Made by a program: the position numbers and the translations under genes. 64,000 bases of DNA from Patescibacteria group bacterium. GTDB taxonomy: Bacteria > Patescibacteriota > Minisyncoccia > Phycocordibacterales > Phycocordibacteraceae. Positions 2,093-59,933 of this stretch are shown here, piece after piece. Location of the stretch: NCBI GenBank assembly GCA_018969385.1, contig JAGWYL010000002.1:289-64288 (forward strand). The letters run 5' to 3'. Positions within the stretch are counted from its first letter, which is position 1. Every line of letters begins with the position of its first letter. The notes below the pieces were generated by a model that ran no database searches, was not told the origin of the DNA, and saw only the letters and a program-made list of their open reading frames with translations.

Positions 2093-2150
2093 CTCACAGA
2101 AAGTCTGATTCGTAAGCGAAAGCGCTTAGCCTTCCGAACCGGACTTTCTG
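2093..2150. repeat. possible decayed remnant of the ~95-bp palindromic element family, just 3' of smc
   Basis: Nested inverted repeats (cagaaagtc...gactttctg; taagcg/cgctta) plus the motif gccttccgaaccgg shared with elements at 25919, 33207 and 49377. Confidence 0.2.
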
Positions 2151-2255
2151 CTCGCTCCGCGCAGTTATCCCCACCTCGGCTTTCGGGAGGGGAGTAACAT
2201 TTCTGTGAGGCAGGTGTATCTCCTGTGTACGCCATTACCCCTTCATGCCACCCTC

Positions 2256-3627: not shown

Positions 3628-3668
3628 GCAAGGCAGTATACCCTGTGAACGACACGTTCAGCATAGGA

Positions 3669-3763
3669 CTCGTTTCAAAACCGGCTCGGGGTGCGCGGTT
3701 TGAAAGCGAACTCCCCTTAGGCTTTCAAACCGCGCACCCGCTCGCCGGAGATTTTGAAACGAG
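3669..3763. repeat. palindromic MITE/REP-like element, copy E1, immediately 3' of RNase R
   Basis: Outer inverted repeat ctcgtttcaaaa / ttttgaaacgag; inner stem ccggctcggggtgcgcggtttgaaagc / gctttcaaaccgcgcacccgctcgccgg; 13-nt loop. About 80% identical to copies at 25919, 33207 and 49377. Confidence 0.8.
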
Positions 3764-3765
3764 CT

Positions 3766-5724
3766 CTATTCAGAGGCCGGCACGAAATCCAGCTCCTTCT
3801 CCGGCACGCGCGCAGCGGCAAGCGTGACGCGGATAGGGTCGCCGATGCGGTACTGCTTCTTCGTGCGCCGGCCTACGAGCCGGTATCCCTTCTCATCGTA
3901 ATCGAAATAGTCGTCGCCGAGGTCGCGGATGCGTATCATGCCGTCCGCATGCGTGGTCTGCTCCTCCACATACATGCCGCGGTCGGAGACGCCGGAAATG
4001 ACCGCGTCGAACGCATCGCCCACGCGTCCCGCGAGGTACTCCACCTGCTTCATCTTGATGGAGTCGCGCTCCGCTTCCGTCGCGGCAACTTCGCGTTCGG
4101 AACAATGGATGGCGAGCTGCTCGAAGCCTTCTACCTCGCGGTCGCTCATCGGTTCGCGTCCCGCGTGGTGTTTCAGCAAGCGGTGCACCACGAGGTCCGG
4201 ATACCGGCGGATGGGCGAGGTGAAATGCGTGTAGTGCGTGAAGGCGAGTCCGTAGTGGCCGATATTCTTAGTGGAGTACACGGCTTTCGCCATGGAACGC
4301 AGGGTCGCGGTCTTGATGAGGTATTCTTCCGGCTTTCCTTTCACCTTCTCGAGAAGCTCGTTGATGGCCACGCCCTTCACGTTGCCCGCATGGGTCTCAA
4401 GGTCGTAGCCGAGCACGCGCAGGAACAGGGAGAGATTCTCGATGCGGTCCGCGTCCGGCGCGTCGTGGATGCGGTAGAGGTAGCCGTGGCGCAGGTTCTT
4501 CGAAAGGTCGGCCAGGTGCTCGGCGACGGACTCGTTCGCGAGCAGCATGAAGTCTTCGATGAGCAGGTTCGTGTCCTTGCGCTCCTTGAGATGCACGGCC
4601 ACCGGCTTCCCCGCGTCATCGAGCTCGATCTTCACCTCCGCCGTGTCGAATTCGATAGCGCCGTTCGCCTGCCGCTTCTTCCGGAGCAGCTTCGCGAGCG
4701 TCCGCAGCGTGGAGAGTTCCGCGTGCAGGTCGCCCGCGCCCGCCTCAAGCGTCTTCTGGGCGTCTTCGTACGTGTAGCGGCGGTCGGAATGTATGACCGT
4801 CTCGCCGAACCACCGGTCAAGCACCTTCGCGTTCGCGTCGAGCGTGAACACCGCGGAAACGGCGAGACGGTCTTCGCCCTGCCGGAGCGAACAGAGGTCG
4901 TTCGAGAGCACTTCCGGAAGCATCGGGATGGTGCGGTCCACCAGGTAGACGGAGGTCGCGCGCTGGTACGCTTCCTTGTCGAGTTCGCCTCCTTGCTTCA
5001 CGAAGAACGATACGTCCGCGATGTGTATGCCCACTTCGAACGTGCCGTCGCCCTTGTCCTTGAAGGAGAGCGCATCGTCGAAATCTTTCGCGTCGGCGGG
5101 GTCGATGGTACAGGTCGGCACGTCGCGGAAATCGCGGCGCTCGCCGCTCGCCACGGCGCGTGCGGCTTCCTCGGCAATCATCGCGTGGCCTTCATGCTGC
5201 AGGACTTCCGCCGCCTTCACGACGGCGGGCGGGAAGGCCGCTTCGAATCCCTGTCCGAGCGCGAGCGCGCGCATCTCCGTCTCGTGAACGCCCGCGGGAC
5301 CGATGACCTGCTCGACGACGCCCCACGGAAAATCCGAACCCTCGTCCCAGCCTTTCATGCGGACGAGCACCTTGTAGCCGAGCGGACAGGGAAGCTCGCC
5401 GCGTATGTCGAGCGGCACGTACATCTTCTTGAGGTCGGGAATGAGGAGCGGGCCCTTGTCGTCCATCAGGGTGCCGACGAACGTTTCGCGCGCGCGGGCG
5501 ACGACGCGGACGACCTTCGCGGCCGCGCGCTTCTCACCGGTGCGGGCGTCCGTCTCGAAACCGTCGGGAGCGACCGTCACGACGTCATGATTGAGCGCAT
5601 GATTGAGCGACTCCTTCGGGATGATGAAATCCTCCTTCTCTTCGTCGTATGTGAAAAAGCCCGTGCCTTTGCGGGTTATGGTGATGACGCCTTCGTAGGT
5701 CTGCGCCTGCGATTCCTTGTCCAC
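3766..5724 (-). CDS. rnr: ribonuclease R (RNB-family 3'-5' exoribonuclease)
   Basis: N-terminal cold-shock/OB region, RNB catalytic motif IDPADAKDFDDALS, C-terminal S1-like domain. Confidence 0.9.
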   Translation of the reverse strand: MDKESQAQTYEGVITITRKGTGFFTYDEEKEDFIIPKESLNHALNHDVVTVAPDGFETDARTGEKRAAAKVVRVVARARETFVGTLMDDKGPLLIPDLKKMYVPLDIRGELPCPLGYKVLVRMKGWDEGSDFPWGVVEQVIGPAGVHETEMRALALGQGFEAAFPPAVVKAAEVLQHEGHAMIAEEAARAVASGERRDFRDVPTCTIDPADAKDFDDALSFKDKGDGTFEVGIHIADVSFFVKQGGELDKEAYQRATSVYLVDRTIPMLPEVLSNDLCSLRQGEDRLAVSAVFTLDANAKVLDRWFGETVIHSDRRYTYEDAQKTLEAGAGDLHAELSTLRTLAKLLRKKRQANGAIEFDTAEVKIELDDAGKPVAVHLKERKDTNLLIEDFMLLANESVAEHLADLSKNLRHGYLYRIHDAPDADRIENLSLFLRVLGYDLETHAGNVKGVAINELLEKVKGKPEEYLIKTATLRSMAKAVYSTKNIGHYGLAFTHYTHFTSPIRRYPDLVVHRLLKHHAGREPMSDREVEGFEQLAIHCSEREVAATEAERDSIKMKQVEYLAGRVGDAFDAVISGVSDRGMYVEEQTTHADGMIRIRDLGDDYFDYDEKGYRLVGRRTKKQYRIGDPIRVTLAAARVPEKELDFVPASE

Positions 5725-14729: not shown

Positions 14730-14764
14730 CATAACGCTAGGACATCGGATGTCCTAGCGTTATG
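14730..14764. repeat. 35-bp palindrome with TAGGACAT-N3-ATGTCCTA core
   Basis: cataacgctaggacat-cgg-atgtcctagcgttatg; same 19-bp core as in trmD (7196) and at 55283. Confidence 0.7.
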
Positions 14765-22938: not shown

Positions 22939-24636
22939 ATGGCAACCGACACCGTACAGAAGATAAAAGACAGGCTGTCGATTATCGATGTGGTGACGCC
23001 GTATGTGAAATTGACGAAAGCGGGACGGTACCATAAGGGACTCTCGCCGTTCAACAAGGAGAAGACGCCGTCGTTTTTCGTATCTCCTGACCGCGGTTCG
23101 TACTACTGCTTCTCAAGCGGGCAGGGAGGCGACATGTTCACGTTCATCGAGAAGATGGAGGGCGTTGATTTCAAGGGCGCGCTCGCGATTCTCGCGGAGA
23201 AGGCGGGCGTGGAGCTCGTCTACGAGCGCGGCGCCGACCGTTCGAAGAACGACCGGCTCTTCGAAGCCGTCGCGCGAGCCGAGCAATCCTTCGCGCGCGG
23301 CCTCACCCCGGAAAGCGGCGCATACGCGTACGCCCGCTCGCGCGGCCTCACGGACGCGACGATTCGCGCGTGGAATCTCGGCGTCGCGCCGGACGCCTGG
23401 CGCGCGCTCCTCGAAGAGGAGACGGGACTCGGGTTCTCGGTTCCGGAGCTGGTCGCCGCAGGCCTCGTGAAGGAAGCGGACGGCAAGCCGGGAACGTTCT
23501 ATGACCGCTTCCGGAACCGTCTCATGTTCCCGATACGGGATACGGCGGGACGCGCCGTCGCGTTCACGGGACGCGCGCTCGATGCGGGAAACGAAGCGAA
23601 GTACCTTAACAGTCCGGAGACGGACCTGTTCAAGAAATCGGAGGTGCTCTTCGGCATGCACGCGGCCAAGGATGCGATACGCACGCGCGGCTTCGCGCTC
23701 CTCGTCGAGGGTCAGATGGACCTCCTGCATGCGCACCAGGCGGGATTCGCGAACACCGTCGCGCTCTCCGGGACGGCGCTCTCCGAGCGGCACATAGCGC
23801 TCATCATGCGCTATAGCGAGAATCTCATGCTCGCGCTCGACGCGGACCGCGCGGGCATCACTGCAGCCGGCAAGAGTGCCGTGCTCGCGCTCCGGAAGGG
23901 CATGCGCGTGAAAGCGGTGCGCCTGCCGAAAGGGCAGGACCCCGCGGACGTCATCGGTAAGGACCCGGAAGATTTCGCGCGGCGCGTGCGGGACGCGAAG
24001 CCCATCGTCGAGTTCTACCTCGACACGCTCGTCGAGAGCGAAGGGGACCCGCACCGGCTCGTGCTCGCCGCGGAGCGGCTCGTGCTCCCTCTCGTGCGCG
24101 CGATGCAAAGCCCGATGGAGCGCGAACATTTCATCGGCGTCATCGCGCGGAGGCTCGGCATCGCGGAAACCGGCGTGCGCGGCGCGCTCGCCCGGCTTCC
24201 GGAAGATGCCGTGCCTATAGGACGAGCGCCGGAGGCGGCGGCGCTTCCGGAAGCGGACGAAGACCCCGCCGCGCTCATGCTCGCCGCCGCCGCGCGCGCA
24301 TATCCGGGTACCGCGCTTGAAAAGCACGTGAAAAGTGAGTACGCTCGTATTACCGGGATGCCGCTTGATGATGCGGCGAACATTCCCGAACGCTATCTCT
24401 TCGAGGCCGAGGCGGTCATCGGGGAGGCGCCGGAGCCCGCGAGCGCGGCTGACCTCGTGCTTCGGTTCGAGCGCGCCTACGTGCGGAGCCTCCTCAAGGC
24501 CGCGGGCAAGAGCATCGCGCTTTCGGAAGCGGCGGGCGACGCGAACGAGCTCGCCGCGGCGACCGCGCGGTGGAGCGAGCTCGCGAAACGCGTCAAGGAA
24601 ACGGAGGCGCAGCCGAGCCCGAAGCCGCATCACTAG
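22939..24636 (+). CDS. dnaG: DNA primase DnaG with degenerate zinc-ribbon ligands
   Basis: TOPRIM region [20 protein letters not shown]...EGQMDL present. N-terminal ZBD reads SPFN...CFSSGQGG instead of CPFH...CFGCG. Confidence 0.9.
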
Positions 24637-24655
24637 CAATTACTATCACACGCAT

Positions 24656-25915
24656 ATGGCAAAAGCCGCACGAACCAAAGCGAAGAGACGTCCGTCCGCA
24701 CGCAGCGCGAAGCCGGCTGCCCGGCGGAGCTCGCATAAGCCCGCTCCGAAGAAGTCGAAACGGCCGGTGAAAAAGACGAGAGCCGCCGCGAAGCCCAAGA
24801 AGGCGGCGCATCCCGCCGTGAAGCCTTCCGCGAAGAAGGCGCCGCGCGGCGGGGACCGCAACGCGCTCGCGGACGCGCTCATTGCGAAGGGGAAAGAGCG
24901 CGGCTACATCACCTATAACGAGATACTGAAGGAGTTCCCGACCATCGAGAACGACATCTCGTTCCTCGACACGCTCTACGAGCGTTTTTCCACGGCCGGC
25001 ATCGACATCCTCGAAGGCGGCATGCTCGAAGATAACGCCGACGAATACCTCGCGACCCGCAACATAAAGAGCCGCGAATCGTCCGGATACGATTCCATTC
25101 AGATCTATCTGCGCGAGATAGGCCAGTATCCGCTCCTCACCGCGGCGGAAGAGCGCGAGCTCGCACAGCGCATCGCGGCGGGCGACGACGAGGCGAGGAA
25201 CATCCTCGCGCGCTCGAACCTGCGCCTCGTGGTTTCCATAGCGAAGAAATACGTAGGCCGCTCTCCGGACCTCACGCTTCTCGACCTCATCCAGGAAGGG
25301 AACCTCGGCCTCTTCAAGGCGGTCGACAAGTTCGACTGGAAGAAGGGATACAAGTTTTCCACGTACGCGACGTGGTGGATACGCCAGGCCATCACCCGCG
25401 CGCTCGCGGACCAGTCCCGTACCATCCGCATCCCCGTGCACATGGTGGAGACCATCGCGAAGTACAAGCAGGTGTCCCGCCGCCTCGCGCAGGCCTTGGG
25501 CCGCGACCCGCAGCCCGAAGAGATAGCGGTGGAGATGGGCGTCGAGCCGGAGAAGATATACCAGATCGAGAAGATAAATCAGGACACGCTTTCGCTCGAG
25601 AATCCGGTCGGTTCGGACGACGACGAGAAGTCCACGCTCGGCGACTTCATCGCGGACGACAAGATTCCCTCGCCCGTGCAGGAATCCTCGGAGCGCATCC
25701 TCGGCGAACAGGTGCGCGACATCCTCGGCGACCTCTCGCCCAAGGAGCGCAAGATACTCGAGATGCGCCACGGGCTCCAAGACGGCGTCTACCACACGCT
25801 CGAAGAAGTGGGGAAGGAGTTCGGCGTGACTAGGGAGCGCATCCGGCAGATCGAAGCGAAGGCGCTCGAGAAGATACGCACGCACGACAAGTCCCGCCGG
25901 CTGAAGAGCTACTAG
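24656..25915 (+). CDS. rpoD: RNA polymerase sigma-70 factor, primary-like
   Basis: Lys/Ala-rich N-terminus; region 2 ([45 protein letters not shown]) and region 4 ([24 protein letters not shown]). Start moved to ATG at 24656. Confidence 0.9.
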
Positions 25916-25918
25916 AAC

Positions 25919-26005
25919 CCGTTTCAAAAACCGGCTCGGGGTGCACGGTTCGGAAGCGAACTCTCTTCAGGCTTCCGAACCGTGCACCCCGAGCCGGACG
26001 TTTTG
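25919..26005. repeat. palindromic MITE/REP-like element, copy E2, immediately 3' of rpoD and 5' of the hydrogenase-like cluster
   Basis: cgtttcaaaaaccggctcggggtgcacggttcggaagc - gaactctcttcag - gcttccgaaccgtgcaccccgagccgg - acgttttg; perfect 28-bp stem. Confidence 0.8.
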
Positions 26006-26062
26006 CACACGGTACGCCCTGGACATTCGCTTCGCGCAGGCATAGAGTACTCCGCATCCGTC

Positions 26063-31664: not shown

Positions 31665-33206
31665 ATGACCATCGACTCGCTGCGTTCTTCGCTCCGGCTT
31701 CCCGCGCTTACGCTCTTCGGCGCGACCGTCGTCCCCTCGGCCGAACTTCCGGCCTACGCCGACGCCTGCGCGGCGCACGGCGCGCCGCTCGTGTTCATGT
31801 ACGGGACGGACGAGCGCGCGGCGGGAATCGGATTCGCGGTGCATGCGGTCTTCGCGCTTCCCGGAAGCGGCTTCGTGACGCTCCGCAGCGTGCTTCCCGC
31901 CGAGAAACCATCCTATCCTTCGCTCACGCGCACCATAATGGCGGCGCACTGGTTCGAGCGGCTCATGCAGGACCAGTTCGGCATCATCGCCGAGGGACAT
32001 CCGGACCCGCGCCGTCTCATCCATCACGAGAACGTGCCGGAAGGAACGTATCCGCTCCGGAAGGATTTCGCCTGGGATGCGAAGCTTCCGCACGCGGACG
32101 TCCCGTATCCCATGCACCGGGTCGAGGGGCGCGGCGTCTACGAGATTCCGGTCGGACCGATACACGCGGGAGTCATCGAGCCCGGCCACTTCCGTTTCAA
32201 CGTACGCGGCGAGCGCATCCTCTCGCTCGAAGGGAAGCTCTTCTTCACGCATAAGGGGGTCGAGAAGCTCGTCGAAGGGAAGACGCCCGCCGAGGCGCTC
32301 CCGTTCATTGAGCGTATCTCGGGCGACATGCCGGTAGCGCATACGCTCGCGTTCGCCGAAGCGGTCGAACGGGCAAGCTGCATCAGTGTGCCGAAGCGCG
32401 CGCGCATGCTCCGCGTCGTCTGGAGCGAGCTCGAGCGCATCACCATGCATCTTTTCGATATGGGAAATATGGGCGGGAACGGGACCGGGTTCACCTTCAT
32501 GGCTGCGCAAGGATTCCGCATGGTGGAGGAGATGCGGCGGATGCACGCGTCGCTTGCCGGACATCGGTACCTCCGCGGCGCGGTGACGCCGGGAGGCGCG
32601 CACGACCTTTCGCAGGAGGCCGCGGCAGGCATGCTTAGGACGCTCGCGCGTATCGAGCGGGACATGAAGGACGTGCTCAAGATCGCGTACGGGACGGACG
32701 GTCTCATGGAGCGGTTCGAGACGACCGGCGTCCTGTCGCGCGCCGCCGCGCTGGCCTACGGCGCGCGCGGCATAGCCGCGCGCGCATCCGGCGTCGACAC
32801 GGATGCTAGGCGCGATTACCCCTACGCGGCCTACGACGAGCTCGCGGTGAACGTCGTCACCGAGAAAGCGGGCGACGTGGCCGCGCGCTTCAAGGTCCGC
32901 GCGCGCGAATTCGAAGAATCGCTCCGGCTCGTCCGCGCCGCGCTCGCCGCGCTCCCGGAAGGGAAGGCGCAAGCCCCGGCCATCGCCAAGGAAGGCGCCG
33001 CGCTTGCCGCCGTCGAAAGCTGGCGCGGCACGATATACGACTGGGTGCGCATCGGCGCGGACGGGCGCATCGACCGCGCTGCGATTTCGGATCCCTCGTT
33101 CTCGAACTGGCCGCTATTCGGCGAGATAGGTCCCGGCAATATCGTCCCTGATTTCCCGCTCTGCAACAAGAGCCTCAACCTCTCTTACTCAGGCACGGAC
33201 TTGTAA
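31665..33206 (+). CDS. NuoC-NuoD fused / HycE-like large subunit homolog lacking NiFe-binding cysteines (Ehr-type)
   Basis: N-terminal NuoC-like AAHWFERLMQDQFGIIAEGHPDPRRLI. L1 motif region reads RISGDMPVAH (canonical RxCGxCxxxH) and the C-terminal L2 region reads SLNLSYSGTDL (canonical DPCxxCxxR). Confidence 0.85.
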   Translation: MTIDSLRSSLRLPALTLFGATVVPSAELPAYADACAAHGAPLVFMYGTDERAAGIGFAVHAVFALPGSGFVTLRSVLPAEKPSYPSLTRTIMAAHWFERLMQDQFGIIAEGHPDPRRLIHHENVPEGTYPLRKDFAWDAKLPHADVPYPMHRVEGRGVYEIPVGPIHAGVIEPGHFRFNVRGERILSLEGKLFFTHKGVEKLVEGKTPAEALPFIERISGDMPVAHTLAFAEAVERASCISVPKRARMLRVVWSELERITMHLFDMGNMGGNGTGFTFMAAQGFRMVEEMRRMHASLAGHRYLRGAVTPGGAHDLSQEAAAGMLRTLARIERDMKDVLKIAYGTDGLMERFETTGVLSRAAALAYGARGIAARASGVDTDARRDYPYAAYDELAVNVVTEKAGDVAARFKVRAREFEESLRLVRAALAALPEGKAQAPAIAKEGAALAAVESWRGTIYDWVRIGADGRIDRAAISDPSFSNWPLFGEIGPGNIVPDFPLCNKSLNLSYSGTDL

Positions 33207-33298
33207 GATTCCGGAACTCGCCGCGGGATGCGCGGTTCGGAAGCCTGAAGAGAGTTCGCTTCCGAACCGCGCATCCCTGGCCGAAGGCTTGAAATACG
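33207..33298. repeat. palindromic MITE/REP-like element, copy E3, immediately 3' of the hydrogenase-like cluster, inverted relative to E2
   Basis: Stem gggatgcgcggttcggaagc / gcttccgaaccgcgcatccc; loop ctgaagagagttc is the reverse complement of the E2 loop. Confidence 0.8.
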
Positions 33299-34162: not shown

Positions 34163-36991
34163 ATGCCCACCACTCCCGCATTCGAAGAAGCGTACGCGAA
34201 GCTCAACGCCAAGCAGAAGGAGGCCGTCGATACGGTCGAAGGGCCGGTGATGGTGCTCGCGGGTCCCGGCACGGGGAAGACGAGCATCCTCACGGTCCGC
34301 GTCGCGAACATACTCGCGAAGACGGGCGCGAAGCCGGACGAGCTCCTCGTGCTCACGTTCACCGATTCCGCCGCGCGCACGGTCGCCGCGCGGCTCGCGG
34401 GACTCATCGGCGAAGAGGTCGCGCGCAAGGTGAACGTGTACACGTTCCATAGCTTCGCGAACGAGGTCATCCGCACGCATCCTGAAGCGTTCCCGGAACA
34501 TGTCGACCGGCGCCAGATGAACGAGCTCGAACAGGTGCTCGTGTGGCGCGCCGTGCTCGAGAAGCACGGGGACCCGCTCCTCTCGACGCCGAAGTCGCCG
34601 TTCCACTACCTCAAGGACCTGAAGCAGCTTGAGGACGAGATGACGCGCGAATGCTTCTCGACGGACGCGTACCGCGCGTGGCTCGATGCGGAAGAGGAAC
34701 GCATCAAGGAGGACCCCGCTTCCCGGTACGCGAAAGGCGGGAAGGGCGGTGCCGCGGGAGAACTCAATCCGAAGGGTCGTGAGAGGCTCGCGCGGCTCGC
34801 GAAGGGACGTGCGGCCGCGAAGCTCATCGACGCGTACCGCGCGGAAAAGGACGCGCGCGGGCTCTACGGCTACACCGATGTCCTTCGCGTCGTCGTCGAC
34901 GCCATCGCTTCCGACGAGGCCTTGCGCGCGGAACTGCAGGAACAGTACCAGTACGTGCTCGCCGACGAGCACCAGGATGCGAACGCGCTGCAGCATGCGC
35001 TCGTCGACGCGCTCGCGTTCGACGACCATCCGAACCTCTTCATCGTGGGTGACGAGAAGCAGGCGATATTCGGTTTTCAGGGCGCGGACGTCTCGCACTT
35101 CGGGTCGTTCCTTGAGCGCTATCCGCGCACCGCGCGGATAGCGCTTTCCGAGAATTACCGTTCGTACCAGGAAGTGCTCGACGTGGCCGAAGGGCTCCTC
35201 GCGGAATTGCCGAGCGCAGTCGGCGCGCATGCGCCGCTTACGGCTACGCGCGGCGCGGGCGGCCGCATCCGCCTCCTCGCCGCACCCGACCCGCTCGCCG
35301 AGCGCGACCAGGTGGCGACGCTGGTGGAAGAGGCTATAGCCGAAGGCGTGCCGCCGCACGAGCTTGCGGTCATCACGCTCAAGAATAAGACCGCGGACCT
35401 TTTCGCATTGCACCTACGCGCGCGCGGGATTCCCGTGCTTCGCGCAGGCGATATCGACCTCGACGGGAGGCCCCTCGTACGCACGCTCTTCGCGCTCATG
35501 CGCGCGACGGGCGACCCGACCGACGCGAGCGCGCTTCGCGAAGCGCTCCTTGCGCCGTGGTGGAACGTGCCGCTCGCCGAGCGCGCCCGGTTCTTGCGCA
35601 CCACGAATGACCGGGAACTGGAAACGGTCCTTGAGGAAGCGTTCCCGGCTGTCGCGGGAATCATCGCCGCCTTGCGCGAGGAAGCGCTCGCCGTGCCGCC
35701 CGCGAACTTCTTCTCGCTCCTCCTCGCGCAGTCGGGAGCGCGCGACTACCTGCTTTCGCATGCCGATGCGCTTACTGAAGACGTACCTCTCGTACGGAAA
35801 GTCATGCAGTACGTGGAAGAGCTCGTGCGCCGCGCGCCGAGCGCGACGTTCGCGGAAGTGGTCGCCGAGTTCGAGCAGGCGCGCGAGCATGAGGTCGGCG
35901 CGCTAACCACGTCGCGCACGCGCGCGGAAGGCGCGGTAACGGTCATTACCGCGCACAAGGCGAAGGGCATGGAATTCGCGCGCGTGTTCGTGACCGCGCT
36001 TACGAAGAGCGAGTGGGAAGGGCGGGGGAAAAGCGCGCTCGTGCCGTCGCCCTTCGACGGCAAGCGCGAGCACGACGAGCTCATCCGCCTGTTCTATGTG
36101 GCGACGACGCGCGCGAAAGACGCGCTCGTGCTCTCCTATGCCGCGGAGAACGGCGACGGGAAAGAGCAGCCGCCGTTCTCTCTCATGCCGGCCGGGCTCG
36201 AGACCCTCTCTGTCCCGTCCGATCCGCTTCCGAAGCTCTTCACGGTCGTCGAGCCGACCGCGCTCCTACGCGAACTCACGGAGCGTTACCTCGTGCATGA
36301 CGGCCTTTCGCCCTCGGCGTACAACGAATATCTCGAGAGTCCGCCCGCCTTCTTCGCGAAGCGCGTGCTGCGCCTTTCCGAGCCTGAGACGCGCGCCATC
36401 GCGGCGGGGAATGCGGTGCACGCGGCGCTCGCGCGATTCCTCAAGACGCGGGATGCGGACGAGGCGCACGCCGAACTCGCCCGCGCGTTCCGCCAATCGC
36501 TCCTGCCGCGCGGCGATACGTTCGATGCGCTCGTCCGTCACGGGTCGGCGCTCCTTCGCGCGGCGCTTGCCGACCCGTTCTTCGCAGGGGAGGCGCTCGC
36601 TATCGAGGAAACGTTCAAGGCGAAACGCGTCGTACGCGGCACGGAGGTGGCGCTCAAGGGGAAGATAGACGCGCTCATGCGGACGGATGAAGGCCTCTGC
36701 ATCGTGGATTTCAAGACGTCGAGCTCGATAGAGAAGGAAGAGAAGGAGCGGTTCGCGCGGCAGATAGCCTTCTATGACCTCTTGCTGCGCGCGAACGGAC
36801 ACGAACCGGTCTCCGGGCGCATCGTGCGCCTTTCCGAGGAAGGCATCGAAGAGCACCGCGTGCTGCTCGCGAAGGAGATGCGCACGGAGCTCGAAGCGAC
36901 GCTCGATGCCGTGCTCGAAGAGCTCCTTACGGGCCGGTGGCGCGCGGGCGCTCCTTCCGACTACGACGCGCTCTTTCGCCTCTTGGCGTGA
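34163..36991 (+). CDS. UvrD/PcrA-family helicase with C-terminal PD-(D/E)xK (RecB/Cas4-like) nuclease domain
   Basis: Walker A VLAGPGTGKTS, helicase motifs YQYVLADEHQDANALQ and VTVITAHKAKGMEF; C-terminal GKIDAL...CIVDFKTS...QIAFYDLL nuclease motifs. Confidence 0.85.
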   Translation: MPTTPAFEEAYAKLNAKQKEAVDTVEGPVMVLAGPGTGKTSILTVRVANILAKTGAKPDELLVLTFTDSAARTVAARLAGLIGEEVARKVNVYTFHSFANEVIRTHPEAFPEHVDRRQMNELEQVLVWRAVLEKHGDPLLSTPKSPFHYLKDLKQLEDEMTRECFSTDAYRAWLDAEEERIKEDPASRYAKGGKGGAAGELNPKGRERLARLAKGRAAAKLIDAYRAEKDARGLYGYTDVLRVVVDAIASDEALRAELQEQYQYVLADEHQDANALQHALVDALAFDDHPNLFIVGDEKQAIFGFQGADVSHFGSFLERYPRTARIALSENYRSYQEVLDVAEGLLAELPSAVGAHAPLTATRGAGGRIRLLAAPDPLAERDQVATLVEEAIAEGVPPHELAVITLKNKTADLFALHLRARGIPVLRAGDIDLDGRPLVRTLFALMRATGDPTDASALREALLAPWWNVPLAERARFLRTTNDRELETVLEEAFPAVAGIIAALREEALAVPPANFFSLLLAQSGARDYLLSHADALTEDVPLVRKVMQYVEELVRRAPSATFAEVVAEFEQAREHEVGALTTSRTRAEGAVTVITAHKAKGMEFARVFVTALTKSEWEGRGKSALVPSPFDGKREHDELIRLFYVATTRAKDALVLSYAAENGDGKEQPPFSLMPAGLETLSVPSDPLPKLFTVVEPTALLRELTERYLVHDGLSPSAYNEYLESPPAFFAKRVLRLSEPETRAIAAGNAVHAALARFLKTRDADEAHAELARAFRQSLLPRGDTFDALVRHGSALLRAALADPFFAGEALAIEETFKAKRVVRGTEVALKGKIDALMRTDEGLCIVDFKTSSSIEKEEKERFARQIAFYDLLLRANGHEPVSGRIVRLSEEGIEEHRVLLAKEMRTELEATLDAVLEELLTGRWRAGAPSDYDALFRLLA

Positions 36992-40599: not shown

Positions 40600-41337
40600 T
40601 TAAAAATATGACACGACCAGGCGCTTGCGGCCATACGGGTCGGTGCGCAACTCGCTTCGTTTCGCTCCGCTCCGACGGGCGAGCGTAAGCGCCTGATCCG
40701 CGTTCGATTCATCGCACTCGAGCCAAAGCTCGCCGCCTTCATTCATGTGCGTCGCAGCGTCCGCGCATATCCGACGGATGAGGTCGAGCCCATCCGTGCC
40801 GGAGAAGAGCGCCCCGTTCGGCTCGTAGTCCGTAACGTTCGCGTCGAGGGTGCGGCCCGCGGGGACGTATGGCGGGTTCGCGGCGATGATGTCGAACCGC
40901 TCGTCCTTAAACGGCGCGAAGAGGTCGCCGATGCCGATGGATGCGCGCGAAGCGTCGAGTCCGTTCTCGCGGATGTTTTTCCGGATGGTGTCCTCGTGCG
41001 CAGGGTCGAGTTCGCCGAAACGGACTTTCGCATGGGGAAGACGCGCGAGCGCGGCGCAGCCGATGGCGCCCGAACCCGCGCACAGGTCGAGAAAAGAAAG
41101 AGGAGTGTCTGTACGCTGTACGCTGTCAGCTGTAAGCTCTTCTGCCCACCATTCCGTTTCGGGGCGGGGGATAAGCGGCCGTGAGTCGAGGTGGATGCGA
41201 AGTCCGAGGAACGGCTGCCACCCGATGACATAGGCAAGCGGCTCGCCGCGGGCGAGCCGCTTGCGATCGGCGTCGAATGCATCGCATTCGACGCCGCCGT
41301 ATTTCTCGTTCACCAGCCACCGCTCGTCCTTCTCCAT
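40600..41337 (-). CDS. prmC: release factor glutamine N5-methyltransferase (HemK/PrmC)
   Basis: LDLCAGSGAIG SAM-binding motif and catalytic NPPY (IIAANPPYV). Confidence 0.85.
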   Translation of the reverse strand: MEKDERWLVNEKYGGVECDAFDADRKRLARGEPLAYVIGWQPFLGLRIHLDSRPLIPRPETEWWAEELTADSVQRTDTPLSFLDLCAGSGAIGCAALARLPHAKVRFGELDPAHEDTIRKNIRENGLDASRASIGIGDLFAPFKDERFDIIAANPPYVPAGRTLDANVTDYEPNGALFSGTDGLDLIRRICADAATHMNEGGELWLECDESNADQALTLARRSGAKRSELRTDPYGRKRLVVSYF

Positions 41338-41547
41338 GCGCGTACGCTACCACGGCGCGCGCGATGCGGATTCTCGACACTCTGTATTTTGCGTGGTATA
41401 ATACACAGGAAAGTACGCCAGGACTCGTTTCAAGGCGTACGGCGAGCGACAGGTGTGCGATTCGGAAGCCTTGTATGGGCTCGCTTCCGCATCGCATGCC
41501 TGGAGCAAGCCGTTCTTGAGACGAGTCCAAGAAAATATGGGTAATGC

Positions 41548-42225
41548 GTGGGGCTCATCCGGAAAAACTGGAGGGTTCCCATGATGCAGACATTCACGAA
41601 TGACAACAAGCCGGACCGCCCGCTTGCATCGAGCAGGCTCGGCAGCCCCGAACGCGCATCCGAGTTCATCGGGCTCCTCTTGCGCGGGTATTCGTATTCG
41701 CAGATAGCGAAGCGTATGCCGGACGTGCTGCCGACTATCGGTACGGTCGCAGCGCTCTGTCGCGACCACAAGGACGAGATAGAGCATGCGAAGAAAGCCT
41801 ATGTCGCGCAGTACGGCATGCCGGCGAAAGAGGGACGGAGCTGCAGCTTCAAAGCGGGAACCGCGCGCTTTGTTACCGACTCGCACTGGTATCTCGGTGA
41901 CGAGACCGACGTGTCGTCGCTCTCACGTGCACCCGAACCGGGTCCGGAACTTCCGCCGAGGGATGCGTTGCCAAAGATGCTCGCCGAACTCATCGACGCC
42001 TGCGGTCCGAATGGCAACGTGTACGAACATGCTGCGCGAGGTCTCAAGGTCCTGAAGGGCGGACGTAATGATATGGACGCGGAAGCGATCAGGCGGTACG
42101 TCGCAACGTCAGGCGGACTTGAACGGCTCCTCGTTGCTCACGGATGTTCGGCTGTACGGGCGGTGGGAATCGGCAAGCACATGCGACAGTTGCTGCATGG
42201 CTCGCCGCCACCGCGCGACCGGTGA
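41548..42225 (+). CDS. hypothetical protein with possible HTH (GYSYSQIAKRM)
   Basis: 225-aa ORF followed by a strong terminator; the true start may be the internal ATG at ~41581. Confidence 0.5.
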   Translation: MGLIRKNWRVPMMQTFTNDNKPDRPLASSRLGSPERASEFIGLLLRGYSYSQIAKRMPDVLPTIGTVAALCRDHKDEIEHAKKAYVAQYGMPAKEGRSCSFKAGTARFVTDSHWYLGDETDVSSLSRAPEPGPELPPRDALPKMLAELIDACGPNGNVYEHAARGLKVLKGGRNDMDAEAIRRYVATSGGLERLLVAHGCSAVRAVGIGKHMRQLLHGSPPPRDR

Positions 42226-47987: not shown

Positions 47988-49796
47988 TCACTCGCTCGCC
48001 GTGAGCATGTACCGCTTGATGTCTTCGAAGGTGCCGCCGACTTTCTTGCCGGGGTTGAGGATGTTCTCGGGATCGAACGCCTTCTTCACTTCTTCGAACA
48101 GCGCGACCATCTCCGCGCCGAAGAGCATGGGGAGGTACGGCGTGCGGATGATGCCGTCATTATGCTCGCCGGTCGTCGTGCCGCCGTACTTGATGACGAG
48201 CTCGTAGACTTTCGGCGCGAGTTCGAGGATGGTCTCGCGGGAAATGGGCTTCGAGAGGTCCATGAGCGGGATGATGTGGAAGTTCCCGTTGCCGATGTGG
48301 CCGGCGATGGTGTAGATGAAGCGGTCCTGATACTGCGCAAGGAGCGCGGATAGTTCCGGCAGGAATTTCGGGTATGACGCAGGCGGCACGACGAAGTCGT
48401 CGATGAAGGGGGAGGCGTAGTAGCCGTGGAGCGACTTGCGCAGGAGCGCGAAGCTCTCGCGCCGGACTATCCAATATTTCTCGCTCTCGGCCTCATTTTT
48501 CTCTATCTTCGTCTCGAGATGGAACTCGGCGAGCGCGTCCTGCGCCGCCTTCGCCTTCGCGTCCGCTTCTTCGATGGTGTTCTCCGCGAACTCGGCCATG
48601 AGGATGAGCTTCGGCACGCCGCCTACGAGCACCGTTTCCACTTCCGGCAAGAACTCGATGCCGAGGTGCACGGCCTTCGCGAGCCCCATCTGCTTGAGGA
48701 GGTCGAAGAGGAACCGCGTCGCGAACGTGAAGGTCTTGTCGTCGTAGCTTTCGAACGATTCGGGATTGAGCGGCAGCACCTTCGCGACGATGTCCGGCAA
48801 CGGCGCGAGGTCATGGAGGAAGATGACGAGCATGGCGCGGTGCGGCTTGTCCTTCACGAGCCCGAGCCGCGCGCGCGTCCACAGCGCGAGCGTGCCCTGG
48901 CTGCCGCAGATGAGCTTCGCGAGGTTCACGCCGCCGTCCGGCGTGCGCACGTTCCAGAGCGCGTAGCCCGCGGAGTTCTTCGAAACCTCCGGCTTCTTTT
49001 CGGCGATAAGGTCGGCGTTCTTCGTGATGACCTCATCGACCGTGCGATAGATGGAACCTTCGAGCGTCTCGAGTTTCTTCTTCTCGTCGAGCTCGGCGCT
49101 CGTGAGCGCTTTGAATGTCGCCTTCGAGCCGTCCGAAAGCACGACCTCCATCTCCTCTATATAGTCTTCCGTCTTGCCGTACTCGAGCGTGCGCTCGCCG
49201 CCGGAATTATTCGCGACGATGCCGCCCATGGCGCAGAGCTCGCGGCTTGCGGGGTAGGAGGGGAGTATGAGGTCCTGCTTGAGGGTCTCCTTCTCGAAGT
49301 CGCGGTAGAAGACGCCGGGTTCCGTGATGGCGTATCCGGCGACATGCGCGCTTTGCAGTCCGTTCGCGTTCAAAGCGGAACTCGTTTCAATACCGGCTCG
49401 CGGTGCATGGTTCGGAAGAAGCCCATTCAAGTCTTCCGAACCATGCACTCCCTCGCCGGAAGTTTTGAAATGAGTTCCGTCGGCAGCGCCGACCTCGCCC
49501 ATGTGATTCATATATCTGGTGAATGAGATGACGACGCCGTCCGTGAGCGGGCCGCCGGACATGTCCGTGCCGGCCGAGCGCGCGGCGAGCGCTACCTGCG
49601 CGCCGCCCTCCCGGGCGGCGCGCACCACCCTTACCGCCGCCGCCACGTCATCCGCATCCTTCGGAAATACCACCAGCTTCGGCATCCGCATGAAAAGGGA
49701 CGTGTCCCTGCTCGCCTTCGCGAGGTCCTCCGGCGCGTCCGACACGTCGCCTTTCACTACGTCTGTCAATCTCGATTTCAGTTCTTGTACATCCAT
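47988..49796 (-). CDS. FAD-linked oxidase (GlcD / D-lactate dehydrogenase family) carrying an in-frame 34-codon palindromic-element insertion
   Basis: FAD-binding PCMH region (FPKDADDVAAAVRVV...GTDMSGG) and C-terminal FAD-oxidase domain (HIGNGNFHI). Continuous 602-aa ORF spans element E4. Confidence 0.85.
   Translation of the reverse strand: MDVQELKSRLTDVVKGDVSDAPEDLAKASRDTSLFMRMPKLVVFPKDADDVAAAVRVVRAAREGGAQVALAARSAGTDMSGGPLTDGVVISFTRYMNHMGEVGAADGTHFKTSGEGVHGSEDLNGLLPNHAPRAGIETSSALNANGLQSAHVAGYAITEPGVFYRDFEKETLKQDLILPSYPASRELCAMGGIVANNSGGERTLEYGKTEDYIEEMEVVLSDGSKATFKALTSAELDEKKKLETLEGSIYRTVDEVITKNADLIAEKKPEVSKNSAGYALWNVRTPDGGVNLAKLICGSQGTLALWTRARLGLVKDKPHRAMLVIFLHDLAPLPDIVAKVLPLNPESFESYDDKTFTFATRFLFDLLKQMGLAKAVHLGIEFLPEVETVLVGGVPKLILMAEFAENTIEEADAKAKAAQDALAEFHLETKIEKNEAESEKYWIVRRESFALLRKSLHGYYASPFIDDFVVPPASYPKFLPELSALLAQYQDRFIYTIAGHIGNGNFHIIPLMDLSKPISRETILELAPKVYELVIKYGGTTTGEHNDGIIRTPYLPMLFGAEMVALFEEVKKAFDPENILNPGKKVGGTFEDIKRYMLTASE
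49377..49478. repeat. palindromic MITE/REP-like element, copy E4, inserted in frame within the FAD-linked oxidase CDS
   Basis: gaactcgtttcaataccggctcgcggtgcatggttcggaaga...tcttccgaaccatgcactccctcgccggaagttttgaaatgagttc. 102 nt; the minus strand reads GTHFKTSGEGVHGSEDLNGLLPNHAPRAGIETSS with no stop. Confidence 0.8.
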
Positions 49797-52864: not shown

Positions 52865-52999
52865 GGATGCGTCCGCAGAAAACGGAAAGGGAAATATCCG
52901 TGCCCGCATGAACGGACGGCGAACGCCTGCGCTGCAAGCGACTGCTCGGATTTCGCCTCATATTTTTTTCATGTTCGCGCGGGCATGTATAATCGGCGG

Positions 53000-54688
53000 A
53001 TGACGCAGGCCGACGCACTCTCCATACTGAAGACCGGCGCGAACGTATTCCTCACCGGCGAACCCGGAAGCGGGAAGACGCACACCGTGAACGCGTACAT
53101 CGCGTGGCTCCGCTCTTGCGGCATCGAACCGGCGGTGACGGCGGCAACCGGCATCGCGGCGACGCACGTGGGAGGGGCCACCATCCACTCGTGGAGTGGC
53201 ATCGGCATCAAGGAATATCTTTCGCCCGCGGATGTCGATGCCATCGCCTCGAAGGAGCATGTCGCGCGCCGCATCCGGAAGGCGAAGGTGCTCATCATCG
53301 AAGAGGTTTCCATGCTGTCCGCGGCGACCTTCGGCATGGCGGACGCGGTGTGCCGCGAGGTGCATCAGCGGGACGCGCCGTTCGGCGGCATGCAGGTGAT
53401 TCTCGTCGGGGATTTCTTCCAGCTTCCGCCCGTCTCGCGCGGGAAGGAGGTCCTGTTCTGCTACGCTTCGCCCGTATGGCGGGAACTCTCCCCGCTCGTC
53501 TGCTATCTCGAAGAACAGTACCGCCAAGAGGATGGCGCATTCCTCGGTGTGCTCTCCGCCATCCGCGCGAATGCGGTGGAGGACGAGCACTATGAGACGC
53601 TCGCCGAAAGACGCACGGATGCGGATGCGATTCCGGAAAACGTACCGAAGCTGTTCTCGCACAATGCGGACGTGGACCGGATAAACGCGGCGGAGCTCGC
53701 CAAGCTGCCGGGATTCGCCATGCGGTTCCTCATGAAAAGCGCGGGCGGCGCGTCGTCCGTCGAAGGCCTCATCCGCGGCTGCCTTTCTCCCGAGACGCTC
53801 GAACTCAAGAAGGGGGCGGCGGTCATGTTCACGAAGAACGACCCGGCGGGCCGGTTCGTGAACGGCACGCTCGGCGTCGTCGTCGATTTCGCGAAGGCGG
53901 ACAATACGCCGGTGGTGGAGACGCGGGACGGCAAGCGCGTGTACGTGGAGCCTGCGGATTGGAAATTGGAAACGGACGGGAAGGTGCGCGCGAGCATCAC
54001 GCAGCATCCGCTGCGGCTCGCATGGGCCATGACGGTGCATAAGAGCCAGGGGCAGAGCCTCGATGCGGCGGTCATCGACCTCTCCCGCGCGTTCGAGTAC
54101 GGGCAGGGATACGTCGCGCTCTCGCGCGTGCGGACGCTTTCAGGGCTGTATCTTCTCGGGCTCAATAATCGCGCGCTTTCCGTGCATCCTGAAATCATCG
54201 AGAAAGACGCGGACTTCCGCGCATCAAGCCGCGCGGCCGCGGCGGCGTTCACGGACATGCCCCGGGATGAGCTTCAGGACATGCAGAAGCGTTTCGTGAA
54301 GGCGGCGGGCGGCGCGTGGATGGACGAGGAGCAGGGAAGCGACGCGGGGAGCCGGCATGAATCCCGCGGCGGCTTTGCCGCCGCGGGATTCATGCCGGGC
54401 AGGCTCGCGGAGACGCTCGAGGCCGTCCGCGACGCCCGCACACTTTCCGAAGCGGCGGATGCGCGCGGCCTTGCCGTTTCCACCATCGTGCATCACCTTG
54501 AGGAACTCTCCGCGCTCGGCGTGCTCGCGAAAAAGGATTACGAACACCTGCTTCCGGAAGACGAAGCGCTCGAAGAGATTCGCGCAGCGCTTGCGGAATC
54601 GGAGGACGAAAAGCTCGCACCGGTCTTCCGCGCCCTCGGCGGCCGCCACTCGTTCGAGGTCATCCGCCTCGCGCGTCTCGCGAAGTAG
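53000..54688 (+). CDS. Pif1/RecD-family 5'-3' DNA helicase
   Basis: Walker A LTGEPGSGKT, Walker B LIIEEVSM, motif VI AMTVHKSQGQSLD. A perfect TATAAT lies 8 nt upstream of the ATG at 53000, giving a leaderless-like start. Confidence 0.85.
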   Translation: MTQADALSILKTGANVFLTGEPGSGKTHTVNAYIAWLRSCGIEPAVTAATGIAATHVGGATIHSWSGIGIKEYLSPADVDAIASKEHVARRIRKAKVLIIEEVSMLSAATFGMADAVCREVHQRDAPFGGMQVILVGDFFQLPPVSRGKEVLFCYASPVWRELSPLVCYLEEQYRQEDGAFLGVLSAIRANAVEDEHYETLAERRTDADAIPENVPKLFSHNADVDRINAAELAKLPGFAMRFLMKSAGGASSVEGLIRGCLSPETLELKKGAAVMFTKNDPAGRFVNGTLGVVVDFAKADNTPVVETRDGKRVYVEPADWKLETDGKVRASITQHPLRLAWAMTVHKSQGQSLDAAVIDLSRAFEYGQGYVALSRVRTLSGLYLLGLNNRALSVHPEIIEKDADFRASSRAAAAAFTDMPRDELQDMQKRFVKAAGGAWMDEEQGSDAGSRHESRGGFAAAGFMPGRLAETLEAVRDARTLSEAADARGLAVSTIVHHLEELSALGVLAKKDYEHLLPEDEALEEIRAALAESEDEKLAPVFRALGGRHSFEVIRLARLAK

Positions 54689-55137: not shown

Positions 55138-55282
55138 TACCCGTGTCGGATACGCGCGCTCTAGGAAAAACCGTATATACGCGGCCTTTTGGACTGCGGA
55201 ACGAGAAAATAAAAAGCCGCCCTATTATGAAGCCGGGGCGGCGCGGCTGTTGGAACGGACTTCCCAAGTACGACACACTTAT

Positions 55283-55307
55283 ACGTAGGACATAGTATGT
55301 CCTACGT
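55283..55307. repeat. 25-bp palindrome with TAGGACAT-N3-ATGTCCTA core, 24 nt 3' of the P-type ATPase stop
   Basis: acgtaggacat-agt-atgtcctacgt; shares its core with 7196 and 14730. Confidence 0.6.
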
Positions 55308-55330
55308 AACATGCTGGGTGTGCCGCCGCG

Positions 55331-58397: not shown

Positions 58398-59933
58398 ATG
58401 CCGAAACGACTTATCGCATCCCTAGCCGCGCATCCCGTGACCTCGGTGGTCTCGGTGGCCGCCGTCGCGCTCGCCATCACCGGCGGCATCGCGCTCCATA
58501 CGCTCGTCCGGCCGACCGTCACGGCGGTTCGCGTCGCTCTCGGGCCGCTCACGGAAGTCGTGAGCGCTGACGGGGTCGTGCGCGCCTCGGAGGCGGCCGA
58601 CCTTTCGCTCCAGACGAGCGGCCGCGTGACGGCAATACCGGCGAGCGTCGGCGAGCACGTGTACGCGGGACAGACGCTCCTCCTTACGGATGACGCGAGC
58701 GCCGCAGCGGCGCTCGCGTCCGCGAAGGCCGCGCTCGCCGTCCAGGAGGCGAAGCTCGCTTCCCTTGAGACCGGCACCCGTCCCGAACAGCTCGCGCTCG
58801 ACCGGACGGCGGTGACCGACGACCAAGCCGCGCTTCGCGACGCGATCCGGAGCGCCTATGTCTATGCGGACGACGCCGTGCACGTGCGCGCCGACGCGCT
58901 CTTCACGAACCCGCGCACGAACGCGCCGACGCTCGCGTTCACGGTTTCCGACTCCGTACTCGCGAATACGATACAGACCGACCGCGTCACGATCGAGTCG
59001 ACGCTCGCGAAGCTCGCGGCGCTCGTGAACGCGCCTTCGTTCGCGACGGACGATCCGCGCAGTACGGCTTTTGCCGCGAGCGCCTCGCTTTCGTCCGTAG
59101 TCTCGTTCCTCGACGAGCTCGCGAAGGCGCTCACGGCGGCGCCGACCGGCGCGACGCTTTCGTCCGCCGCTCTCGCGGCGGACCAGGCGAGCATAAACAC
59201 GGGACGGCTGAACGTCTCCGCCGCGCTCACCGCGCTCACGTCCGCCACGACCGCACTCTCCAATGCCGAAGGAACCCTCACGCTCGCGTCTTCCGGCGCG
59301 ACGGCCGAAGACCTCGCCGCGCAGAAGGCGCAGGTGGATGTCGCCGCCGCCGCGGTGGACAGCGCCCAAGCGGAGCTCGACAAGACCGCGCTTGCGGCGC
59401 CGTTTGCCGGCACCGTCTCGCGGCAGGATGCCCAGGTCGGGGACACGCTTTCGCCCGGACAATCCGTCATCTCCGTCGTTTCGGACGCGCACTACCGCAT
59501 GGACGCCTACGTGTCCGAAGCGGACATCGGCAAGATCGCCGTCGGCGACGCGGCAAGCGTCACGCTTGCCGCGTATCCGGACTCCGCGCCTCTTCCGGCG
59601 ACGGTGTCTGCGGTCGCTCCGGCCGCGGAGCAGGTGGGAGGCATCCTCGCCTACAAGGTCACGGCCGTCCTCACGGATAACGACCCGCGCGTGAAAGCCG
59701 GGCTCTCCGGTTCGCTTTCGGTGACGACGAAGCATCTCGATTCGGTCCTCCAGGTTCCGGCAAGCGCGGTCATCCGCAACGGCACGGACCATTTCGTCAT
59801 GCGCGTTCTCGCGAACGGCTCCGCCCTCCAGGTTCCGGTCACCGTGGGAGCCACGGGGTCGAACGGGAACACGGCAATCCTCTCCGGGCTTTCCGAGAAC
59901 GATTCGGTAGAAACTTTCGGCAGCGCCAAATGA
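58398..59933 (+). CDS. HlyD-family periplasmic adaptor / membrane fusion protein (long form)
   Basis: N-terminal anchor, lipoyl-like hairpins (VYAGQTLLLTDD, VGDTLSPGQSVISVV), extended Ala-rich coiled coil. Confidence 0.8.
   Translation: MPKRLIASLAAHPVTSVVSVAAVALAITGGIALHTLVRPTVTAVRVALGPLTEVVSADGVVRASEAADLSLQTSGRVTAIPASVGEHVYAGQTLLLTDDASAAAALASAKAALAVQEAKLASLETGTRPEQLALDRTAVTDDQAALRDAIRSAYVYADDAVHVRADALFTNPRTNAPTLAFTVSDSVLANTIQTDRVTIESTLAKLAALVNAPSFATDDPRSTAFAASASLSSVVSFLDELAKALTAAPTGATLSSAALAADQASINTGRLNVSAALTALTSATTALSNAEGTLTLASSGATAEDLAAQKAQVDVAAAAVDSAQAELDKTALAAPFAGTVSRQDAQVGDTLSPGQSVISVVSDAHYRMDAYVSEADIGKIAVGDAASVTLAAYPDSAPLPATVSAVAPAAEQVGGILAYKVTAVLTDNDPRVKAGLSGSLSVTTKHLDSVLQVPASAVIRNGTDHFVMRVLANGSALQVPVTVGATGSNGNTAILSGLSENDSVETFGSAK

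Follow-up and report, generated by a model that had tools for sequence, protein, structure and literature searches.

How does a conserved enzyme come to carry, within its reading frame, a DNA hairpin that elsewhere in the same genome lies between genes? The question is raised by a 64,000-nucleotide stretch, hereafter the window, of a Patescibacteria group bacterium (assembly GCA_018969385.1, contig JAGWYL010000002.1, positions 289 to 64,288 of the forward strand). The gene concerned (47988..49796, minus strand) encodes a 602-residue oxidoreductase that binds flavin adenine dinucleotide (FAD), and the element, named E4 (49377..49478, minus strand), is a 102-nt palindrome that is read in frame. 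Genomes of the Patescibacteria, or candidate phyla radiation (CPR), are usually described as streamlined and repeat-poor, while insertions in their proteins and rRNAs are a recognised oddity whose source is unclear. The evidence assembled below makes it very probable that E4 is a copy of a non-autonomous palindromic repeat of ~92-107 nt, of a kind with repetitive extragenic palindromes (REPs), the REP doublets named REPINs and Rickettsia palindromic elements (RPEs), that has become part of the FAD-oxidase gene and is kept as an unconstrained loop. An in-frame palindromic repeat in a protein gene is a known phenomenon, of which this is a new example in a new phylum.

A palindrome read in frame within an oxidase gene

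An earlier annotation of this DNA, made by a model from the letters and their open reading frames (ORFs) and called here the original prediction, had claimed that the oxidase ORF reads straight through the element. It does: on the minus strand, from 49478 to 49377, E4 (GGA ACT CAT TTC ... ACG AGT TCC) provides 34 codons with no stop, encoding GTHFKTSGEGVHGSEDLNGLLPNHAPRAGIETSS, residues 107-140 of the 602-residue protein. In the orientation of its family the element matches copy E1 on the plus strand, and is thus antisense to the host gene. Its description as a hairpin-forming palindrome is equally sound. E4 folds into one extended hairpin, whose inner stem is perfect over 17 bp; the minimum free energy is -72.7 kcal/mol (z = -7.6), a stability reached by none of 200 shuffles. 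The insert still looks non-coding by its codon signature, because its GC content at third codon positions (GC3) is 0.44, as against 0.87 in the remaining gene and 0.71 in the lowest other 34-codon window.

The original prediction also stressed that the insert is 102 nt long, a multiple of three, and free of stops in the host frame. All of this is true, but it is statistically unremarkable, as a random insertion would reach that state with a chance of roughly 1/3 x 1/2, about 1 in 6. Two of the six frames of E4 are open and four of six in each of copies E2 and E3; copy lengths range over ~92-107 nt. Since the event is of the 1-in-6 order, selection acting as a filter suffices, and no special adaptation of the element need be assumed.

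The element was first placed between the conserved blocks RYMNHMGEV and AGYAITEPGV. It lies inside that interval but not directly between the two, as GAAD precedes it and ALNANGLQSAHV follows. The attribution of 34 residues to the element stands, while the lineage-specific loop that holds them (49341..49490, minus strand, residues 103-152) had been under-described: it is 50 residues long in all and consists of GAAD, E4, and ALNANGLQSAHV, so that 16 of the 50 (four before, 12 after) are outside the element. Two small hairpins flank E4 within the loop: GTCGGC-GCT-GCCGAC (49479-49493), encoding VGAAD, and GCTTTG...CAAAGC (49350-49376), encoding ALNANGLQS. One example of a tryptic peptide of the host protein is TSGEGVHGSEDLNGLLPNHAPR.

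A dispersed family of hairpins

Inverted-repeat and profile searches recover at least five full copies of the E family in the window, and one fragment. Copy E1 (3666..3768, plus strand) is intergenic: the RNase R gene, 3766-5724(-), has its stop codon (3766-3768) directly against it. E1 is also upstream of the minus-strand ORF that comes next. E2 (25915..26008, plus strand), also intergenic, begins at the TAG stop of rpoD (24335-25915, plus strand) and has a 27-bp perfect stem and a degenerate right outer arm. E3 (33205..33298, minus strand) is an intergenic copy that begins at the TAA stop of a NuoCD/[NiFe]-hydrogenase-like gene (31665-33206, plus strand), with one outer arm partly deleted. 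E5 (41421..41527, minus strand) is a more diverged intergenic copy found between a strong promoter-like site (41374-41402) and the gene 41548-42225(+). The fragment (2105..2155, plus strand), partial or degenerate, comprises the inner stem only, with the GGTTCGGAAG motif (nhmmer E-value 0.0008-0.006).

The nhmmer family profile matches the window at 3666-3765, 25915-26008, 33206-33297, 41422-41528, and 49378-49476, with E-values of 1e-19 to 4e-27; that of E4 itself is 3e-25. The family core pattern has eight matches in the window (four copies, both strands) against none expected. Pair identities among the copies are 54-82%, E4 being 79% identical to E2, 73% to E1, 71% to E5, and 62% to E3. E4 aligns end to end with the four dispersed copies, asymmetric bulges included, and has in common with E5 the loop variant CTTG[A/T]ATGGGCT. 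The proposal that a member of the family was absorbed into a protein is thus borne out at the DNA level, where the 34 codons are homologous to the intergenic copies. Each copy is built as one hairpin of ~100 nt, with two arms of ~43 nt that are not themselves recognisable REP palindromes and a loop of 13-15 nt; the termini GGAACTCGTTTCAA and TTGAAACGAGTTCC pair (92-107 nt, n=5). Of the 37 stem pairs in the consensus, 13 show double compensatory changes across the five copies, which makes the hairpin the thing that is conserved.

An explanation that dispenses with a mobile repeat is that the 34 residues are an old lineage-specific loop, whose likeness to a hairpin is secondary or due to chance, or that they stem from a local fold-back (template-switch) duplication. 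It would fit the hypervariability of the loop among orthologs, and a helicase palindrome of the window (54352-54398) resembles such a local inverted duplication of native sequence. However, the end-to-end alignment of E4 with four dispersed copies has E-values of 1e-19 to 1e-27, GC3 at 0.44 is non-coding-like, and neither arm of E4 corresponds to native ortholog sequence. The copy alignment, the nhmmer profile, and GC3 effectively refute this explanation already, and it can be considered highly improbable.

The family had been said to serve as 3' hairpins elsewhere. Three copies do touch stop codons: E1, E2, and E3 start 0-1 nt from the stops of the genes of RNase R, RpoD, and the NuoCD-like protein, and "3' hairpin" is to be taken as a descriptive label only for the intergenic copies. 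The stops at 3766-3768, 25913-25915, and 33204-33206 run up to or into the opening bases of E1, E2, and E3, respectively. In E1 and E2, the TAG can be read as belonging to the terminus of the element (TAG-A[G/A]C[T/C]CGTTTC), and the element may therefore supply or target the stop codon there. A role of the E copies as intrinsic terminators was considered and rejected, as a consensus scan calls none, the loops are too long, and only 4 T are present. No Rfam family is matched anywhere in the window. The site preceding E5 has a near-consensus extended -10 (TCGACA-17-TATAAT, with TG), and the downstream ORF of 225 residues is unannotated; from its location between this site and the gene, the ~100-nt hairpin of E5 probably sits in a 5' leader.

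The E family looks lineage-restricted, because its core, GGTTYGRAAG-N12-17-CTTYCRAACCRYGCA, has no match in 185,579 species-representative genomes of GTDB and 80 other Parcubacteria loci, together 1.3 Mb, give no match to the five-copy nhmmer profile. A single metagenome match to the core pattern, from the Joint Genome Institute (JGI), is set aside as chance: it is located at the start of a glycosyltransferase gene.

The host protein and its orthologs

The host protein belongs to the VAO/PCMH family and harbors the Pfam domains FAD_binding_4 and FAD-oxidase_C. Its NCBI annotation is FAD-binding oxidoreductase, from a Patescibacteria metagenome-assembled genome (MAG), and among solved structures D-lactate and D-2-hydroxyglutarate dehydrogenases have the nearest folds. 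Loop lengths were scored in 113 of 120 listed close orthologs; 80 species-representative loci form a separate set. The E4 insert is absent from all of them (113/113 and 80/80). The original prediction had named the same extra 34 residues in unrelated orthologs as the mark of an ancient loop; they are not seen in the 113 scored orthologs. A minimal loop of a single residue (...MNHxxEV-G-DGYAxTEPGV) is present in 77 of these (~68%) and 4-17 extra residues in the other 36, whereas the window protein has 49 extra. In an alignment of 20 sequences, the E4 loop is the sole site of notable length variation besides the N-termini. All its invariant columns include the window protein, and none of them is lost over the 450 residues that follow the insert. 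Among 5.8 billion proteins, the ortholog closest to the window protein, other than itself, is ~70% identical overall and ~75% when the gap is ignored.

A structure model was proposed in the original prediction, to see whether the insert forms a surface loop in the FAD-binding domain. The AlphaFold2 model of the host protein (mean predicted local distance difference test score, pLDDT, of 79.6; predicted template modelling score of 0.83) is confident outside the loop, and it presents an unstructured loop at the turn of a β-hairpin: between strands 99-104 and 154-158, residues 109-149 are without secondary structure, and their pLDDT values are under 50. The 34-residue insert is thus predicted to be a disordered loop at the tip of a β-hairpin of the FAD-binding domain.

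That the ORF is undisrupted, as first read, is confirmed by a second assembly. The identical 602-residue protein is found in two MAGs (MBU6323164.1 and MDE1965808.1), and the contig of the second (GCA_028865695.1) is 99.96% identical over 5.2 kb, both differences being outside the gene. E4 has neither a stop nor a frameshift despite its divergence of 21-38% from its relatives, which argues for long-standing purifying selection on the reading frame across it. These data bear on the idea that the host gene is a pseudogene, or the junction an assembly artefact, and that the frame is open by chance. An open frame alone does prove little, its chance being ~1 in 6, but no invariant column of the family is lost over the 450 downstream residues, each of the two Pfam domains is complete, the structure model is confident outside the loop, the same sequence comes from two MAGs, and so diverged an element without frameshift or stop points to long-term purifying selection on the frame. 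The idea is scarcely credible in view of these, and the host protein is presumably made and active. An intron, an intein, or a structured RNA was also considered and rejected: the window has no Rfam match, Pfam identifies the two FAD-oxidase domains only, and 34 residues are too few for an intein.

Other palindromes at the same loop

E4 is not the only palindrome to occupy this position. In FAD oxidases of other Parcubacteria, palindromes of the form ACTTGG...CCAAGT are located in frame at exactly the E4 loop (loci L003, 2311-2360; L004, 850-897; L012, 1233-1260; L018, 10311-10337; L029, 10311-10337; L035, 198-251). Their peptides are of the xNLxxxxPS type, as exemplified by SNLAVSPPS or SNLAARHLSNLGVSPPS. 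Their perfect stems reach 22-23 bp; the one in L003 is a 22-bp perfect stem of -51 kcal/mol, and the stem changes between L003 and L004 are compensatory. A third type (AATGTAGGACGTAGTACGTCCTACATT, peptide NVGRSTSYI) is found at the loop in L027 (3364-3396) and L068 (16-40). It belongs to a GTAGGAC...GTCCTAC family, with a GTAG-like head as in classical REPs. The loop types are scattered over the oxidase ortholog tree, and the oxidase loop is a recurrent landing or retention site for palindromes in orthologs. Palindromy does not extend to every long ortholog loop: those of P0028/L005 (HAFPTGPHRPTGEV) and L009/L041 (VSLDSARDE-), and several more, are no more stable when folded than their shuffles.

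A filled and an empty allele illustrate this turnover. P0046 (L004, ~846-900) and P0084 (L086, ~2355-2365) share ~95% identity once the insert is set aside (92% with the whole alignment counted). P0046 has, between GTCG and GTG, a clean palindromic insert of 51 nt that P0084 lacks, so inserts of that kind are gained or lost at the oxidase loop. A divergent tract upstream of the insert in P0046 resembles P0093, another filled allele, which suggests that the ACTTGG-filled loop moved by homologous recombination. By extension, the window gene could have imported from a relative, by homologous recombination, a segment already holding E4, the loop spreading as an allele cassette. The filled/empty pair, in which the 51-nt insert is accompanied by an upstream tract matching a filled allele, and the scatter of loop types over the tree speak in favor of such an import. 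Yet the E family is seen in this lineage only, among all that were searched, so that the donor must be a very close relative, and the original insertion event is still needed somewhere. As a full account, import is unlikely.

The same observations bear on whether the E4 hairpin functions at the RNA or DNA level, as a translational pause, a processing site for RNase III or another enzyme, or a replication or recombination signal, and is retained by selection. E4 is a near-perfect palindrome, with its 17-bp perfect inner stem, though it is 21-38% diverged, and the stems covary across copies. Other lineages hold palindromes at the same loop, with compensatory changes between L003 and L004. Moreover, the consensus has a run of 4 T after the inner stem that reads TATTG in the sense strand of E4, a break that would fit selection against intragenic termination. 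However, 68% of the scored orthologs have no insert, so the hairpin is not needed for the host gene. The presence of three unrelated palindrome families at one site indicates permissiveness rather than a specific signal, arm-to-arm templated repair can maintain palindromy without function, and no Rfam family matches. A retained nucleic-acid function is therefore quite unlikely.

Comparison with known palindromic repeats

RPEs are palindromes of ~100-150 nt found both in intergenic regions and in frame in conserved housekeeping or metabolic genes (Ogata et al. 2000 Science, via PMC10969869 and PMC3733652). The E family resembles them in its size class, its hairpin, its combination of intergenic and in-frame copies, the added peptide with its predicted compatibility with the fold, and the lack of a transposase of its own. 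Like RPEs, it has a stable hairpin (102 nt in E4) in several copies, at least five in 64 kb, and one copy in frame in a conserved gene whose ORF is undisrupted, the 34 codons of the 602-residue FAD oxidase. It differs in that the CGTC end tag of R. conorii RPEs (PMC3733652) is missing: E elements end in ...ACTCGTTTC, and CGTC occurs in E5 only. The E family is set apart from RPEs by the core-pattern search (0 in 185,579 genomes) and not by alignment to RPE consensus sequences. The hosts also differ, a free-living or epibiotic Patescibacterium as compared to an obligate intracellular alphaproteobacterium, and some RPE families have about half of their copies inside genes, compared with one of the five observed for E. 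The label "RPE-like" given to E4 therefore holds for the way the element works but not for family membership, as there is no sequence relation, no CGTC tag, and no trace of the core in GTDB representatives.

REPs are located less than 20 bp from the 3' ends of ORFs, with occasional in-frame copies encoding 20-80 residues (Di Nocera et al. 2013, PMC3733652). Two Xanthomonas species have different REPs at roughly one position in recB, and intragenic GTAG/CGTC REPs are reported in several phyla (PMC3733652). E1, E2, and E3, at 0-1 nt from stop codons, are well within the 20 bp, and an in-frame gene copy and different palindromes at one gene site in related organisms are further points of likeness. 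In contrast, an E element is ~100 nt long instead of 20-40 nt, and no GTAG is conserved, the ends being ATAG (E1), CTAG (E2), CAGG (E5), and GCGG/ACGG (E4). REPIN doublets are mobilised by RAYT transposases (Bertels & Rainey, PMC3337134). The E hairpin recalls a REPIN in being long and made of two inverted arms, though these arms are not recognisable as REPs, and no RAYT gene was found among the ~40 window ORFs scanned.

[quoted passage not shown] The E elements are likewise small, non-coding, multi-copy, bounded by terminal inverted repeats, and able to give in-frame fusions. They differ from MITEs in having no consistent target-site duplication at E1-E5 and no parent insertion sequence in the window, and in that the whole element is one hairpin rather than terminal inverted repeats flanking a core. 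Finally, coding palindromes are transcribed and translated in protein genes of Nematomorpha mitochondria (Mikhailov et al. 2019, PMC6649704). Common to both cases are long near-perfect inverted repeats inside protein genes, functional in Nematomorpha and presumably so here, where secondary structure and coding are kept together. In Nematomorpha, however, the arms encode conserved native protein, whereas those of E4 are extra sequence from a dispersed repeat, absent from orthologs. In the full-text literature searched, neither REP, MITE, or RPE-like elements nor in-frame palindromes are reported from Patescibacteria.

A possible route to the present gene

The history that best accommodates these data would be as follows. 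The E family would usually reside in transcribed non-coding DNA, directly 3' of stop codons, and one copy would have entered a coding region at a permissive turn of a β-hairpin in the FAD-binding domain, the one position in the host protein that appears to tolerate extra residues. E4 would have survived because it is divisible by three in length, meets no stop in the host frame, and sits at a turn that tolerates extra residues. The 34 encoded residues would then form an unconstrained, disordered surface loop, the element being kept palindromic at the nucleic-acid level and not moulded by selection on the protein. As such, E4 is probably selfish or neutral cargo. It may have arrived by direct transposition through some enzyme, or as a filled allele imported via homologous recombination.

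Several points weigh against this history. No close relative offers an empty site for E4, the nearest ortholog being ~75% identical, and the exact boundaries of the insertion or of a target duplication are undefinable. The flanks of E1-E5, compared by eye and by alignment, have no consistent direct repeat, so the target-site duplication for which the original prediction proposed to look did not materialise. A possible duplication of TA is seen at E1 only, and CGTTCA stands left of both E1 and E4, probably by chance. Among the ~40 window ORFs scanned with Pfam, there is no transposase gene, Y1_Tnp or other. With neither a target-site duplication nor a transposase in the window, the mobility of the E family is deduced from its dispersal only. 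The five copies examined all lie within 64 kb, and the family was not found in the other genomes searched. Lastly, E4 leaves 16 of the 50 extra residues unaccounted for; these may be the remnant of an older loop of ~10 residues, such as those of P0009, P0052, and L041 (AALDKARGEI, VSLDSARDEM), together with a small second hairpin.

Further palindromes in the window and related loci

Palindromes of the same general kind are present in other genes. An ACTTGG-type palindrome is in frame in the PrmC (HemK) methyltransferase of L018 (19855-19896; TNLEAKLPIGSFASK), and the window PrmC is without it; PrmC of L009 has AATGTCGGGACGTCGTACGTCCCGACATT in the same variable block. Another ACTTGG-type palindrome is intergenic, directly 3' of a gene (L041, 8959-8998). 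A match in L037 was set aside, as it is part of an ordinary-looking lipase coding sequence and may be due to chance. The window TrmD gene (6813-7502, plus strand) contains a perfect palindrome with a 22-bp stem (7195-7239; AGGCTTTCAAAACTAGGACATC-C-GATGTCCTAGTTTTGAAAGCCT), in frame as KAFKTRTSDVLVLKAY, and solved TrmDs are ~11 residues shorter at this point. A Pif1-like helicase gene (52985-54688, plus strand) also contains a perfect palindrome with a 22-bp stem, the one at 54352-54398 referred to above, in frame (SRHESRGGFAAAGFMPG) in a hypervariable linker. It looks like a local inverted duplication and not a mobile insert, because its right arm includes conserved MPG codons.

The TrmD palindrome and the oxidase loop of L027 have a core, TAGGACRT...AYGTCCTA, in common with short intergenic palindromes of the window (14730-14764 and 55282-55308), of L013 (20630-20648), and of L026 (9408-9426). 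In the window, TAGGACRT is present seven times where 1.3 would be expected, and the termini of the E family (TAGGACTCG in E1) are similar to this core.

In total, the window has 29 perfect palindromes with a stem of at least 10 bp and a loop not exceeding 20 nt, examples being 41234-41264, 41268-41296, 49597-49624, 35115-35145, and 58692-58720; shuffles give ~2. Of the 29, 17 are in coding frames. As the shuffles did not preserve codon structure, the whole of this excess is not claimed to be biological. Several palindromes are located in native conserved sequence with no change of length, such as KRLARGEPLA of PrmC and VRAAREGGAQ of the oxidase, and part of the coding excess probably reflects the complementarity of Ala, Gly, and Arg codons in a GC-rich genome.

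Implications for Patescibacteria proteins

A family caught both at the 3' ends of genes and in frame within the gene of a conserved enzyme provides one concrete source of the lineage-specific loops in proteins of this phylum. It extends the Rickettsia type of selfish DNA in proteins to a very distant, non-intracellular lineage. In practical terms, such inserts inflate apparent protein novelty and can break MAG assemblies or gene calls. The use of one loop by three palindrome families also provides a tractable test of whether a site is permissive or targeted.

A broader picture can be put forward tentatively. High-GC Parcubacteria (Kaiserbacteria/Paceibacteria relatives) might carry several short palindrome families for which the same protein loops are, time and again, a place of entry or regrowth, with pairing kept by compensatory change even within coding DNA. 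Three families are seen here, the ~100-nt E, ACTTGG...CCAAGT, and (G/C)TAGGAC...GTCCTA, and the loops affected would be the hairpin turn of the FAD oxidase, the variable block of PrmC, TrmD, and the linker of the Pif1 helicase. The interest of the locus would be greater if the colonisation of the same loops by several families reflected a targeted or active process in the phylum. Recurrent entry, if true, would amount to an active building of loops from selfish hairpins, possibly hairpin-targeted or driven by recombination, and not to a single accident filtered by selection.

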